Of a stretch of DNA of 64,000 nucleotides, positions 3,966 through 61,412 are shown piece by piece. Where the stretch lies: the NCBI RefSeq assembly GCF_044647545.1, contig NZ_CP172818.1; one strand, given 5' to 3'. Source of the stretch: Escherichia coli. Lineage in GTDB: Bacteria > Pseudomonadota > Gammaproteobacteria > Enterobacterales > Enterobacteriaceae. How positions within the stretch are numbered: position 1 is the first letter of the stretch; each line of letters opens with the position of its first letter. The position numbers and the translations under genes are program-made. Under the pieces are notes generated by a model. The model was not told the DNA's origin. It saw only the letters and a program-made list of their open reading frames with translations, and searched no databases.

Positions 3966-5324
<1,359 letters not shown>

Positions 5325-5331
5325 TTCGACA

Positions 5332-6957
5332 TCAACCCTGCCCTTCAGGGGTGGGGTTACCTTGCTTATCCTCAGTAAACTCCTTTCTTAGCATCACAAA
5401 ATCGAAAACATCATGGTTTGCATCTACAACCCGTGAGTCTCCTTTATAGTGTGCAATCACTTCCTCAAGCGTTTGCGGCTGTTCCGGCTTTGTTACCCCC
5501 ATCCACGCATTAATAAGGTAATTATTGTACGCAGTGGAAAAGATATCGTTTTCCGTTGTGCGATCCACGCCATCCCCAAGAACGGGGCTATACCAGATAA
5601 ACATCGGGACATGATATGCCTGCTGGCTGGCCTCCCTGCCTCCATGAAAATAGACGTTCTTCTTCGTAGGGTCGCGTTCCAGGCCGTGGTCGGCAAAATA
5701 CATGACCGAGGCGCGGCGATCTTTTAATAATTCAAAAACCTGACCTAGCAAACTATCTGTGTAATGAATGGAGTTGTCATAGCAGGCATCCTGATCGTCC
5801 TGCGGTTGAAACACGGCGCTGGATTGCGGATAGGCGCTACAAGCCGGTTCATGGCTTCCATTTAAATGAAGAACAATCAGTTTCTTTTGCTGCGTCTTTT
5901 GCTGTAACGCTTGCGATAAATGCGGCAACAACAATTCATCAAATCCTCTGACATAGACTGTTTCCATGGCGCGCATGGCGATACTGGTAACTGCTGTACC
6001 ATTCTGCCGAAAAGCGGATTGCGAGCTTAGCCAGAAAGTCTGAAATCCTGCTTGATTAGCCATATTAATAATGTTGTCCGGGTAATTATGAATGTCATGA
6101 CTCAAAACAGAATCAGCAGTTAAAGAAAGGGGAACCGACAGCGCAGTGTAAGGTGCACCGCTTATTGCTTGATTAAACAGTTTGATCTGTTTTCTTTGTG
6201 CTTCGACTTGCGGTGTCGTAGAGCGTGTGTATCCATACAAAGACATATTGTCGACACGTACAGACTCCCCCACAATCAACACGTAGGTATCAATACCTGT
6301 ATCCCTGACTGATAATTGAAAATACGGCACCGTGTTTGCAATTGAGAGTAATCTTTGATGCTCTTTCGCTGCTAAAGCAAAATAATTGAGATTGAAAAAC
6401 GGTGTATAGGTAGCAAATCGCGACGCTAGTATATATGGACTGAACGCTTTTTTATTTTTTGCATCTTTATAAGCAAATTGACAAGCGGAAAATAAACTGC
6501 CCGAAATGACAATCAGCAATAATATTCCTGTCACTTTTTTTGTCGGCAAGGAAACATCATATTTTATTATTACTGCCAAAAAAAGAAGGGATAAAAAAGC
6601 AAAAGCACATAGATAAGGGATATACATCCCCAGCATTTTCACAACTTCATCCGGATCACTCTGCAGCACACTAATCGCAAATCCATCATTGAAAGTTGTA
6701 CCAAAGGTACACCATGAATAGAGGCTAATACTCATGTCTGCCGCAGTCAGTAACACAAATGGTGCGGCAACAAGCAGGCGAAGCGGAAGGGATGATATAC
6801 GTTTAACAACCAGGATGGTCAGAACGAAAAACAGCAATCGCTGAACCATATGCGCTCCGGAAGAGGCGACTAAGTTCGTAATACCAAAAACAATAACACA
6901 AAGATACAACAACCAATGAGATTTAAAACTTCTAACAAATTTGTTGAATACTGTCAT
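5332..6957 (-). CDS. yhbX: Inner-membrane sulfatase-family (phosphoethanolamine transferase-like) protein YhbX
   Basis: ORF of 552 aa; start moved to internal Met (MTVFNKF...) for the ~541-aa form; N-terminal TM helices then sulfatase-like domain; convergent with argG, 7-bp gap. Confidence 0.75.
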   Translation of the reverse strand: MTVFNKFVRSFKSHWLLYLCVIVFGITNLVASSGAHMVQRLLFFVLTILVVKRISSLPLRLLVAAPFVLLTAADMSISLYSWCTFGTTFNDGFAISVLQSDPDEVVKMLGMYIPYLCAFAFLSLLFLAVIIKYDVSLPTKKVTGILLLIVISGSLFSACQFAYKDAKNKKAFSPYILASRFATYTPFFNLNYFALAAKEHQRLLSIANTVPYFQLSVRDTGIDTYVLIVGESVRVDNMSLYGYTRSTTPQVEAQRKQIKLFNQAISGAPYTALSVPLSLTADSVLSHDIHNYPDNIINMANQAGFQTFWLSSQSAFRQNGTAVTSIAMRAMETVYVRGFDELLLPHLSQALQQKTQQKKLIVLHLNGSHEPACSAYPQSSAVFQPQDDQDACYDNSIHYTDSLLGQVFELLKDRRASVMYFADHGLERDPTKKNVYFHGGREASQQAYHVPMFIWYSPVLGDGVDRTTENDIFSTAYNNYLINAWMGVTKPEQPQTLEEVIAHYKGDSRVVDANHDVFDFVMLRKEFTEDKQGNPTPEGQG

Positions 6958-44375: not shown

Positions 44376-45788
<1,413 letters not shown>

Positions 45789-45909
45789 GGTGTTCTGGAA
45801 AGCGCCTCGCATAATCTGAAGAAAACCAATGTAATACGCACATCTGGATTGTTACCGGCCGATGCAGATCCCGGCGTATAGCTGATTCCATTATTCAACA
45901 CTGCGCCAT

Positions 45910-47037
45910 ATGAAGGGACAGATAATGGAATCGCTCTCAGAAGGAACCACAGCAGGCTACCAGCAAATCCACGACGGCATTATTCATCTGGTCGATAGCG
46001 CCCGGACGGAAACGGTACGTAGTGTTAACGCGTTAATGACCGCCACATACTGGGAAATTGGCCGACAAATTGTCGAATTTGAACAAGGTGGCGAGACCAG
46101 GGCTGCGTATGGTGCGCAGCTAATCAAGCGACTATCAAAGGATTTAAGTCTAAGGTATAAGCGTGGGTTTTCCACCAGGAATTTATGGCAGTTTAAGAAT
46201 TTTTATATTTGTTTTCAACGAATTGAAATTGTGCAGACACTGTCTGCACAATTCACCCCCACAATTCGCCAGACACTATCTGGCGAATCTTGCCATTTAG
46301 CGCAACTTGCCAAATCTTTCCCCCTGCCCTGGTCCACTTACGTCCGTTTGCTTTCTGTTAAAAACGCTGACGCTCGTAGCTTTTATGAGAAAGAAACACT
46401 CCGCTGTGGCTGGTCTGCTCGTCAGCTCGAACGGCAAATTGCGACCCAATTTTATGAGCGGACACTACTGTCACATGACAAATCAGCCATGCTGCAACAA
46501 CACGCTCCTGCCGAGACGCATATTCTTCCGCAACGGGCGATACGCGATCCCTTTGTGCTCGAATTTCTGGAATTGAAAGATGAATATTCAGAATCCGATT
46601 TTGAGGAGGCGCTGATCAACCACCTGATGGATTTCATGCTGGAACTTGGGGATGATTTTGCCTTTGTTAGTCGACAGCGAAGGTTACGCATTGATGACAA
46701 CTGGTTTCGTGTCGATCTGCTGTTTTTCCACCGCCGTTTACGCTGCCTGCTAATCGTCGATCTAAAAGTGGGCAAATTCAGCTATAGCGATGCCGGACAG
46801 ATGAATATGTATCTCAACTACGCCAAAGAGCACTGGACGCTACCGGATGAAAATCCGCCCATCGGTCTGATTCTCTGTGCAGAGAAAGGAGTCGGAGAAG
46901 CGCATTATGCACTGGCTGGTTTACCTAACACCGTTCTGGCGAGTGAATATAAGATGCAACTACCTGATGAAAAACGACTCGCGGATGAACTCGTTCGAAC
47001 ACAGGCGGTGTTAGAGGAAGGCTATAGACGCCGTTAA
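45910..47037 (+). CDS. yhcG: DUF1016 / PD-(D/E)XK nuclease-superfamily protein YhcG
   Basis: 375-aa ORF MKGQIMESLSEGTTAGYQQIHDGIIHLVDSARTETVRS...; C-terminal region has restriction-endonuclease-like D...(E/D)xK spacing (RVDLLFF, IVDLKVGKF); alternative start at ATG 45925 (MESLSEG). Confidence 0.8.
   Translation: MKGQIMESLSEGTTAGYQQIHDGIIHLVDSARTETVRSVNALMTATYWEIGRQIVEFEQGGETRAAYGAQLIKRLSKDLSLRYKRGFSTRNLWQFKNFYICFQRIEIVQTLSAQFTPTIRQTLSGESCHLAQLAKSFPLPWSTYVRLLSVKNADARSFYEKETLRCGWSARQLERQIATQFYERTLLSHDKSAMLQQHAPAETHILPQRAIRDPFVLEFLELKDEYSESDFEEALINHLMDFMLELGDDFAFVSRQRRLRIDDNWFRVDLLFFHRRLRCLLIVDLKVGKFSYSDAGQMNMYLNYAKEHWTLPDENPPIGLILCAEKGVGEAHYALAGLPNTVLASEYKMQLPDEKRLADELVRTQAVLEEGYRRR
46227..46253. 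repeat. 27-bp palindrome, copy 1 (inside yhcG CDS)
   Basis: aattgtgcagaca-c-tgtctgcacaatt: perfect 13-bp arms around a single central base. Confidence 0.7.
46263..46289. repeat. 27-bp palindrome, copy 2 (inside yhcG CDS, 9 bp after copy 1)
   Basis: aattcgccagaca-c-tatctggcgaatc: 11 of 13 arm positions complementary; same AATT....CAGACAC core as copies 1 and 3. Confidence 0.7.
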
Positions 47038-47051
47038 TTTCAGCGGTTTCG

Positions 47052-47078
47052 AATTCTCCAGACACTGTCTGGAGAATC
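47052..47078. repeat. 27-bp palindrome, copy 3 (14 bp downstream of yhcG stop)
   Basis: aattctccagaca-c-tgtctggagaatc: 12 of 13 arm positions complementary; differs from copy 2 by compensatory changes (cgcc/ggcg to ctcc/ggag). Confidence 0.7.
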
Positions 47079-47096
47079 TTTAAAACGAACTAAGTT

Positions 47097-48429
<1,333 letters not shown>

Positions 48430-61365: not shown

Positions 61366-61396
61366 CAAAAAACCGGAGTCTGTGCTCCGGTTTTTT
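61366..61396. terminator. Bidirectional rho-independent terminator between convergent degS and mdh
   Basis: aaaaaa-ccggag-tctgtg-ctccgg-tttttt. Confidence 0.55.
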
Positions 61397-61412
61397 ATTA
61401 TCCGCTAATCAA

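Follow-up and report, generated by a model that had tools for sequence, protein, structure and literature searches.

The gene considered here lies within a window of 64,000 nucleotides (the whole stretch of Escherichia coli DNA that was analyzed), alone between gltD (44388-45788) and nanQ/yhcH (47097-47561, minus strand). In the ORF list it occupies 45910..47037 on the plus strand, as the longest open reading frame, with a 375 amino acid product. A second in-frame ATG at 45925 has a Shine-Dalgarno sequence (AAGGGA) 7 nt upstream and is the RefSeq start in a 99.6%-identical strain; it is likely the true start, yielding a product of 370 amino acids. The gene is yhcG, already catalogued in E. coli and encoding a nuclease-fold protein. 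Relative to the K-12-like arrangement, gltF-yhcA-yhcD-yhcE-yhcF are missing here, in agreement with a sequence-only reading of this DNA that placed a solitary yhcG at a variable junction. The same reading saw no partner genes, and none is present: the flanks consist of gltBD and nan genes only, with no methylase, ATPase, or toxin-antitoxin partner at the locus, and the flanking genes gltB, gltD, nanQ, nanK, nanE, and nanT do not include the cognate methyltransferase expected of a type II restriction-modification (R-M) system.

Both Pfam families of DUF1016/YhcG proteins (COG4804) match in the expected order: DUF1016_N (PF17761; E 5.9e-43) at residues 24-184 (45979..46461, plus strand), a region predicted to be all-helical and broken by a disordered loop at residues 102-123, and YhcG_C (PF06250, PDDEXK; E 1.9e-55) at residues 209-360 (46534..46989, plus strand), the PD-(D/E)XK nuclease domain. 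The catalytic codons, also on the plus strand, are those for E245 (46642-46644), D269 (46714-46716), D284 (46759-46761), and K286 (46765-46767). Among 23- and 57-homolog sets, the larger reaching down to 33% identity, no variation is seen at E245 or D269 (in RVDLLFF), K286 is kept in at least 90%, and residue 284 is D or E. The predicted fold of the nuclease domain includes the restriction-endonuclease-like alpha/beta core; it resembles NucS most closely and also matches Hjc. YhcG has no sequence match to any PDB chain, by single sequence or by profile. These results uphold the two domains and catalytic spacing originally proposed: the HMM and structure comparison suggested for the C-terminal domain recovered the nuclease family, and loss of the catalytic residues among homologs, which would have counted against it, was not seen. 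By these profiles and models, YhcG is shown to combine a predicted helical N-terminal domain with a C-terminal PD-(D/E)XK nuclease of NucS/Hjc/restriction-enzyme type, its E-D-(D/E)xK signature intact; the protein most probably cleaves DNA as a Mg-dependent endonuclease.

The likeness to NucS/EndoMS and archaeal Hjc-type PD-(D/E)XK nucleases is one of predicted nuclease-domain fold only. NucS/EndoMS, to which YhcG has no family-level sequence similarity, has an N-terminal beta-barrel for dimerization and DNA binding; that of YhcG is instead the all-helical DUF1016_N, which places it outside the NucS family. To our knowledge, NucS genes do not carry an embedded palindrome. The predicted fold of the YhcG N-terminal domain is weakly similar to ParB/KorB DNA-binding domains, a family that binds palindromic sites.

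The nuclease-fold reading is not new: it goes back to Kosinski 2005 (PMC1189080) and is built into PF06250/PF17761 and the PADLOC candidate PDC-S02, to whose model PDLC04807 YhcG residues 6-370 match (E 1.3e-133) as a single-gene system. The single PDC-S02 representative tested, from a cold seep, gave E. coli B no protection from T4, T5, or T7 (10.1101/2024.09.26.614923). Approximately 24,000 clusters at 50% identity match the YhcG query, yet, as the sequence-only reading had supposed, no established function is on record: no biochemical report was found in the open-access literature, NCBIfam has no curated protein name, and the PHROG match is to an entry of unknown function.

What is new at this locus is its palindromes. 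There are three, all entered without a strand. Copy 1 (46227..46253; AATTGTGCAGACA C TGTCTGCACAATT) has perfect 13-bp arms and encodes IVQTLSAQF in frame; copy 2 (46264..46288; ATTCGCCAGACACTATCTGGCGAAT) has 10-bp arms and encodes IRQTLSGE, also in frame; and copy 3 (47053..47077; ATTCTCCAGACA C TGTCTGGAGAAT), with perfect 12-bp arms, begins 15 nt past the stop codon. Copy 3 with its left flank resembles a fragment of the internal yhcG region (FQRFRILQTLSGES), and its site is retained in E. coli genomes lacking yhcG. With up to two mismatches allowed, CCAGACANTGTCTGG occurs three times in the 64 kb, vs. 0.15 times expected. A scan of the window with a covariance model of the element puts just these three copies at 36-41 bits (40.9, 35.7, and 40 bits for copies 1 to 3); the next match, at 61366-61397 with 16 bits, is an ordinary terminator. 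The palindromes noticed in the sequence-only reading are real, and they are in fact no local curiosity: as described below they belong to a family-wide nucleic acid element, the most interesting thing at the locus. No description of it was found in open-access literature on yhcG, DUF1016, COG4804, PF06250, or PDC-S02.

Several known kinds of element were considered and rejected. The palindromes are not intrinsic terminators: no terminator-like site is found at them, and no U-tract follows. Nor are they a known RNA family (Rfam 15 gave no relevant match at E values up to 10 in 45700-47300). They are also not dispersed in the manner of REP or MITE repeats: a 41-nt query matches one to six places in an E. 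coli genome (median 2), all of which fit yhcG-type loci. Rickettsia palindromic elements (RPE) are likewise in-frame palindromic insertions within genes, and REP sequences are likewise tied to one nuclease-like gene (RAYT); unlike either, the YhcG palindrome is not dispersed, being found at one homologous position in one gene family.

Nearly all relatives of yhcG in bacteria, archaea, and phages carry a palindrome at one fixed place in the coding sequence. This place is a linker, the stretch coding for the disordered loop of the N-terminal domain. A linker palindrome with 9 or more of 12 pairs is present in 79 of 80 genome loci, vs. 0.37 expected, and 114 of the 133 palindrome centers in this set share one codon phase, at query residues 107-113. 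When genome and viral loci are combined (153 distinct loci), 133 have a best linker palindrome (near query residue 108) with 10 or more of 12 pairs, and 152 have one with 9 or more. A viral clade at first classed as hairpin-less proved to be a product of a frame-restricted, odd-center scan; the palindrome is there in another frame or with an even center. The consensus, ~25-29 nt in length, is (C/G)AATT-nnn-CAGACA-S-TGTCTG-nnn-AATT(G/C). Its apex (CASTG) and base (AATT) keep their sequence, whereas the middle varies by covariation. The covariation score of the element is 0.533 vs. 0.153 when shuffled (none of 500 shuffles reaching the observed value; slid controls 0.05-0.14), and 0.586 vs. 0.174 in an independent viral set. 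Between lineages the arms change by compensatory substitutions, and copies within the same gene differ at 117 stem positions, 50 of them compensated in both copies. Copy number ranges from one to six among homologs. In some loci the DNA core is kept but translated in a different frame (L120/L122, with PEFARQCLTNL; L124; L125; L129; L051), some have even-length palindromes (L132, L137, L138, L140), and some have extra copies 5-80 nt upstream of the start codon (L034, L061, L069, L072, L076, L130, L133). In L076 and L069, the upstream copy lies directly after an extended -10-like sequence (TGTTATGAT) and ahead of the ribosome binding site.

Could the conserved entity be a peptide, with the DNA palindrome as its by-product? 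A motif I-x-Q-T-[LV]-S-x-[EKQ] can be recognized in many homologs, and translation always runs through the region, in frame and with no stop, so that a functional linear motif might be proposed. Other lineages encode wholly different peptides there (ISESLIRKL, IPYTVCRES, PIANALRSQL, ILHEARAEF) while their DNA remains palindromic; amino acid covariations are exactly those the palindrome dictates; some clades translate the core in a different frame (RQCL, DGVC); the encoded peptide is predicted to be disordered (pLDDT <50); and further copies lie outside the ORF altogether. This explanation is very improbable: with such varied peptides and more than one frame in use, a peptide motif as the conserved entity is rejected. 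The compensatory arms, variable copy number, alternative frames, and disordered product together show that what the family conserves in this element is the nucleic acid, not the peptide. A caution for sequence analysis follows: the "QT[LV]S repeat" of YhcG proteins reflects a palindrome in the DNA and is no motif of the protein.

In E. coli the palindrome region is hypervariable, and it forms a boundary of recombination or deletion. The hypervariable patch, 46151..46335 (plus strand), is centered on the internal palindromes; within it, sliding identity to the K-12-type allele falls to 55-70% with indels, whereas elsewhere in yhcG it stays at 94-100%. The E. coli locus occurs in three states, each bounded on the right by the palindrome. 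Among 5426 complete genomes, 947 have an empty gltD-palindrome-nanQ junction in which the palindrome stands alone. The element might be a recombination or self-cleavage site, extruded as a cruciform or hairpin and serving as substrate for the NucS/Hjc-like nuclease or the host SbcCD. Breaks made there would promote gene conversion, alter the copy number, swap N- and C-terminal modules, and let the gene be gained or lost at palindrome-marked sites; its function would then be selfish or diversifying, at the DNA level. The variable number of units (one to three in enterics, up to six elsewhere) and the predicted nuclease fold fit such a role, as do a remnant palindrome pair at the left edge of an island ending in a DUF1016 gene (L022), a step in DNA identity at the linker between L124 and L125 (~50-57% before it, 75-88% after), and the synthetic lethality of yhcG deletion with replication and topoisomerase IV hypomorphs (dnaB, dnaN, parE; PMC2672614). 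In contrast to homing sites, however, the site is left intact where the gene is present; the breakpoints may reflect merely a tolerant disordered linker plus shared microhomology; and the recurrent copies beside start codons go unexplained. This role is conceivable but somewhat unlikely.

The explanation tentatively preferred, as possible rather than probable, is that the conserved embedded palindrome is a putative cis site of YhcG itself, giving the gene built-in autoregulation. It is suggested by the fact that YhcG is the only thing to accompany the element through bacteria, archaea, and phages; a conserved apex and base with a covarying middle is also what would be expected of a protein-recognized structure, and the copies ahead of start codons and the weak ParB/KorB likeness of the N-terminal domain fit it as well. 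The helical N-terminal domain would bind the palindrome, either as duplex or as extruded hairpin, and binding would create negative feedback, as a transcriptional roadblock or operator or by capture of the gene's own mRNA. Such feedback would function wherever a promoter-less copy of the gene happened to land, for example within type I R-M operons, and the start-codon-proximal copies of several lineages would be a second operator. A palindrome at once fragile and conserved would also account, as side effects, for the hypervariability, the mosaic N- and C-terminal modules, and the lone palindromes where deletions or insertions end.

There are precedents for operators of this kind. Intragenic auxiliary operators include lac O2 inside lacZ and gal OI inside galE, and the C-protein operators of R-M systems autoregulate nuclease genes. 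The YhcG element resembles these as a palindromic site in or beside the gene it would regulate, and the lac/gal pairing of a promoter-proximal site with one a few hundred base pairs inside the ORF is also seen in L069, L076, L130, and L133. It differs in that the internal site is constant and the promoter-proximal one optional, and in that its arms covary between copies in a single gene, as those of operators do not. Two observations stand against a cis site. Most homologs have internal copies only, ~300 nt into the ORF, an unusual position for an operator; and the downstream palindrome remains perfect in the 947 E. coli genomes without yhcG, so that at least this copy needs no YhcG. Moreover, a dimer recognizing duplex alone would be unable to hold the uncontacted middle complementary; hairpin formation or homogenization by template switching would be needed.

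Template switching at quasi-palindromes is an established form of mutagenesis in E. coli, and concerted change of two arms is its expected product. The palindrome might thus be self-perpetuating and neutral: an old insertion in a peptide-tolerant loop, with no function of its own, in which intramolecular template switching during replication either erases or copies changes in one arm. In its favor, the encoded loop is disordered and freely variable in length, and the mismatch types show no strand bias. Against it, the apex CASTG and outer AATT are conserved across phyla, at 29-40% protein identity with silent sites saturated; the element is kept in ~99% of the 153 loci despite the proneness of palindromes to deletion; and copies have been independently recruited beside start codons. 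A purely neutral palindrome is judged unlikely.

An RNA antitoxin is less probable still. By analogy with type III toxin-antitoxin systems, hairpins in the yhcG mRNA could act in cis as such an antitoxin, holding the nuclease inactive and releasing it once transcription stops or the message decays, as in phage infection. ToxIN is such a case of a nuclease paired with nucleic acid tandem repeats of ~36 nt that travel with it, in a defense context. Here too the element accompanies a nuclease gene, some E. coli alleles have tandem units of 36-39 nt, and hairpin stability is predicted to be very high (z -7 to -10, with -7.4 for copies 1 and 2 as a pair); the family, besides, is a PADLOC defense candidate often found within R-M loci. 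But ToxI repeats, 5.5 in number, lie 5' of the toxin gene and do not fold as simple hairpins, whereas those of YhcG are inside the ORF and translated, often with a single copy present; most homologs have just one or two, and some of the extragenic copies may not be co-transcribed with the gene. The nuclease has a fold of DNA-enzyme type, its fold relatives acting on DNA. Mismatches read on the sense strand are A:C in 81 cases vs. G:T in 42, without the G:U excess that would support a sense-strand RNA hairpin, although coding constraints may confound this comparison. An RNA antitoxin is judged quite unlikely.

A broader version of the preferred cis-site reading would make the palindrome the recognition, and possibly cleavage, site of YhcG, and DUF1016 genes self-contained nuclease-plus-site modules, in which the site both regulates the gene and, through hairpin or cruciform breaks, sets off gene conversion, the swapping of modules, and insertions or losses at chromosomal sites marked by the palindrome. 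This is speculative, and on balance doubtful; if true, it would be an undescribed kind of selfish or defense gene architecture common to bacteria, archaea, and phages, and a self-site of the nuclease would add a new design principle to those of autoregulated or selfish nuclease genes. The DUF1016/YhcG family is very large, listed in defense-island catalogues and found inside R-M operons, and a frame-independent cis element inside the ORF is a concrete and cheap handle on its function: it supplies a probable ligand for the N-terminal domain and a defined substrate for binding and cleavage assays, and predicts a phenotype for synonymous recoding.

Gene neighborhoods of homologs, proposed earlier as a check on any association with defense or mobile contexts, do include such contexts, although yhcG in the window, with its gltBD and nan neighbors, is in neither. 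The YhcG protein matches PDC-S02 models and its homologs share the R-M settings of other PDC-S02/COG4804 genes, PDC-S02 being a computational candidate only; the window gene differs in standing alone between housekeeping operons. DUF1016 genes are enriched beside phase-variable R-M genes (PMC9881135). Programmed inversion of yhcG itself was considered and rejected, the inversion survey having DUF1016 as a neighbor of inverted genes and not as a target. In 9 of 80 loci hsdM is immediately 5' of the homolog, and some homologs sit between hsdM (5') and hsdS (3'); other neighbors include EcoAI-type hsdR, hsdS, DrmD/DUF1156 (three loci), and a Mod-type methylase (three loci). DUF1016 homologs are also found as 156 confirmed matches in viral contigs and in 508 plasmid records.

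The yhcG gene of the window occupies 45910-47037 on the + strand as its longest ORF (375 aa). A 370-aa product is likelier, because a second in-frame ATG at 45925 has an AAGGGA Shine-Dalgarno sequence 7 nt before it and is equivalent to the RefSeq start in the closest strain. Pfam places DUF1016_N at residues 24-184 and the PDDEXK domain YhcG_C at 209-360, and the product has a NucS-like PD-(D/E)XK nuclease fold whose active site is intact. The sequence-only reading had assigned this fold, correctly, but the prediction dates from 2005, in a paper that also described a helical N-domain of ~200 aa, of unknown kind, and no conserved neighbourhood (PMC1189080). The 1.6-kb yhcG region is matched in 5425 of 5426 complete E. 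coli genomes (top identity 99.6%), where it is annotated “PDDEXK nuclease domain-containing protein / yhcG.” The protein matches the PADLOC candidate single-gene anti-phage system PDC-S02 (E 1e-133); NCBIfam has no model for it, and the matching PHROG carries no function. What appears to be new is a conserved cis element, palindromic DNA within and beside the gene, which that reading had mentioned in passing.

Earlier work gives several contexts for the family. DUF1016 is over-represented beside phase-variable restriction-modification genes and also sits between type I system core genes (PMC9881135); it is found on rickettsial conjugative elements (PMC4316617) and in Wolbachia phage. One PDC-S02 representative, assayed in E. 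coli B against T4, T5, and T7, was outside the four protecting candidates. Deletion of yhcG is synthetically lethal with hypomorphic dnaB, dnaN, or parE alleles (PMC2672614). In K-12-type strains, a divergent stationary-phase ncRNA, G0-10703, is reported to overlap the yhcG 5′ UTR by 128 bp (PMC7967276); this probably does not apply to the window, since the K-12 upstream region is missing from it.

Two palindrome copies lie in frame in the N-domain of the window gene (46227-46253 and 46264-46288), and a third begins 15 nt past its stop codon (47053-47077). In K-12-type alleles the downstream copy is accompanied by three internal ones; Salmonella and Citrobacter have a single internal unit. Distant homologs (34-46% identity) all have, in the same place, one to six units of a peptide resembling I-x-Q-T-[LV]-S-x-[EKQ], and the unit variants (QPVAAES, YTVCRES, HTLCGES, IGQTVSAQ, and others) follow the amino-acid covariation dictated by an in-frame DNA palindrome. 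DNA was compared for 80 genome loci from Proteobacteria, Bacteroidota, Firmicutes, Cyanobacteria, Acidobacteriota, Planctomycetota, Elusimicrobia, Nitrospira, and four archaeal lineages, and for 80 viral-contig loci. A linker palindrome with at least 9 of 12 positions paired is present in 79 of the 80 genome loci, against an expected 0.37 per locus, with its first copy at query residue 107-113; 114 of 133 palindrome centres share one codon phase. Of 153 distinct genome and viral loci, 152 have a best linker palindrome of at least 9 of 12 pairs, and in 133 it reaches at least 10 (background rate 2.8e-4 per centre). The arms themselves are entirely different among lineages (for example ATTTCCGAATCACTGATTCGGAAAT, ATTCCCTACACAGTGTGTAGAGAAT, and CAATTGCGAACGCACTGCGTTCGCAATTG), and one locus, L051, has a 21-bp stem.

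In 95 hairpins, 82% of cells are paired (62% when shuffled), 300 cells are changed on both sides (108 when shuffled), and the covariation score is 0.533, compared with 0.153 for shuffled and 0.05-0.14 for slid controls; none of 500 shuffles reached it. Because these hairpins had been chosen for palindromy, the count was repeated on viral loci found by a covariance model built only from the genome set, giving 0.586 against 0.174 shuffled, again reached by none of 500. All four Watson-Crick pairs are used at positions 7 to 9 from the centre; conserved as sequence are an apex (C-A-S-T-G), the flanking GAC/GTC, and an outer A(TT)/(AA)T. The element keeps to yhcG-type genes: in the whole 64-kb window the covariance model picks out just three sites, and E. 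coli genomes searched with a 41-nt query give hits at a median of two places each. No Rfam family matches it, and a search of the open-access literature found no description. As far as we can tell, these palindromes are a previously undescribed cis element, robust and conserved, of a large family of nucleases.

The element is conserved family-wide, at a fixed position in the gene, as nucleic acid and not as the encoded peptide. Peptides vary freely with palindromy retained. Copies within a gene differ at 117 stem positions, with Watson-Crick pairing in both copies at 50 of them. Two loci read GAATTCGCCAGACAGTGTCTGACGAATC as PEFARQCLTNL, the same DNA core in another frame; the core is likewise frame-shifted in four more (L124, L125, L129, L051), and four others (L132, L137, L138, L140) have even-length palindromes (IVNACVHNL). 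Related copies also occur outside ORFs. The element-encoded residues, ~102-123, are modelled as coil with pLDDT below 50, in full length and as the N-domain only. That the repeat is a functional peptide motif, as its recurrence in distant homologs might suggest, is highly improbable.

At the DNA level, the element coincides with variation. Outside 46151-46335, identity between the window and K-12 alleles is 94-100%; inside, it drops to 55-70%, with indels. This patch covers, besides the palindromes, ~25 codons on their left (STRNLWQFKNFYICFQRIEIV vs. SAKNLRQMRLFYLFFQHVEIR), in a version that the window has in common with Pseudocitrobacter. The downstream copy of the window and its left flank read like a piece of the internal region (FQRFRILQTLSGES vs. 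FQRIEIVQTLS...IRQTLSGES), and N- and C-terminal similarity can be discordant, DNA identity between loci L124 and L125 being 50-57% before the linker and 75-88% after it.

The sequence-only reading had placed yhcG at a variable junction, and this holds, as three states occur in E. coli: gltD-gltF-yhcA-yhcD-yhcE-yhcF-yhcG-nanQ (K-12 type), gltD-yhcG-nanQ (the window), and gltD-nanQ without yhcG (947 of 5426 complete genomes). The right end of all three is the palindrome. In the window, gltB and gltD lie upstream and nanQ (yhcH), nanK, nanE, and nanT downstream on the opposite strand; as also noted there, yhcG has no methylase, ATPase, or toxin-antitoxin partner in its surroundings. Genomes lacking yhcG have a lone perfect palindrome with 13-bp arms (AATTCGCCAGACAGTGTCTGGCGAATT) between gltD and nanQ, as at 1620-1650 of the E. 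coli THO-003 locus, equivalent to window 47053-47077. Lone-copy arms carry compensated changes (GCC/GGC vs. TCC/GGA and TGC/GCA); they match an internal copy of other alleles, not the downstream copy of those alleles. The window gltD is itself truncated at 45780-45795: ~70 nt of the closest strain, comprising the last six codons (MNWLEV), the stop codon, and a terminator-like inverted repeat (CAGCGCCG...CGGCGCTG), are absent, and the gene now terminates ...AADGI*. This contiguous junction was found in none of the 5426 complete genomes.

A cleavage or recombination site driving such exchange is an unlikely explanation for the palindrome. We tentatively propose that it may instead be a built-in autoregulatory site of yhcG. 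YhcG is the most likely reader of the conserved apex and base, being the sole factor to accompany the element through bacteria, archaea, and phages. Autoregulation would suit a gene whose insertions, such as those between hsdM and hsdS, often bring no promoter along, and would account for copies recruited beside start codons; on that view the signs of recombination and hypervariability would be by-products of a palindrome that is fragile and shared. A neutral palindrome with symmetry upheld by template switching is rather unlikely. A selected hairpin and template-switch homogenisation cannot be told apart by compensatory change alone; what argues for selection is that apex and base are conserved and that the element is kept almost universally at protein identities of 29-40%. 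Part of the probability is assigned to none of the explanations considered here and could go, for example, to a host factor. The palindromes make the function of the large yhcG nuclease family directly testable.

At the RNA level, a cis RNA antitoxin is quite improbable. A hairpin in the sense RNA is without support, because in an alignment of 95 sites (L004-L083 and the window) non-Watson-Crick pairs at positions 1-14 of the sense strand are A:C in 81 cases and G:T in 42, an A:C excess of about twofold and the opposite of what such a hairpin would predict; coding constraints may confound this count. The A:C excess could point to the other strand, or be a coding artefact.

Several independent lineages have an extra copy directly ahead of the start codon. 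Three Lachnospiraceae/Enterocloster loci (L069, L072, L076) have it between an extended −10-like TGTTATGAT and the RBS; L130 and L133 have it at a distance of 15-35 nt from the ATG, in the short interval that follows the upstream gene; L034 and L061 have upstream copies too. These look regulatory.

In three Flavobacterium/Patiriisocius loci (L043, L044, L047), the DUF1016 gene (5001-6080) is flanked by type II topoisomerase subunit homologs, judged from motifs to be B-subunit (ParE/GyrB-like) upstream and A-subunit (ParC/GyrA-like) downstream; together with the yhcG/parE synthetic lethality (PMC2672614), this may be coincidence.

In locus L022, two family-type palindromes (2690-2780) are found 2.3 kb ahead of the DUF1016 gene, at the far edge of an island that ends in that gene. 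They fall between a putative UDP-glucose-dehydrogenase-like gene and uncharacterised genes of 414 and 207 aa, within a short ORF reading ...KILQTVSAKS..., apparently what is left of an earlier DUF1016 gene at the boundary of the island. Paired DUF1016 paralogs within a few kb are found in a Woesearchaeota MAG (L053, 2855-3823 and 5001-5969) and in Enterocloster lavalensis (L076, 5001-6029 and 6832-7749); each paralog has its own palindrome, in L076 of odd and then even type.
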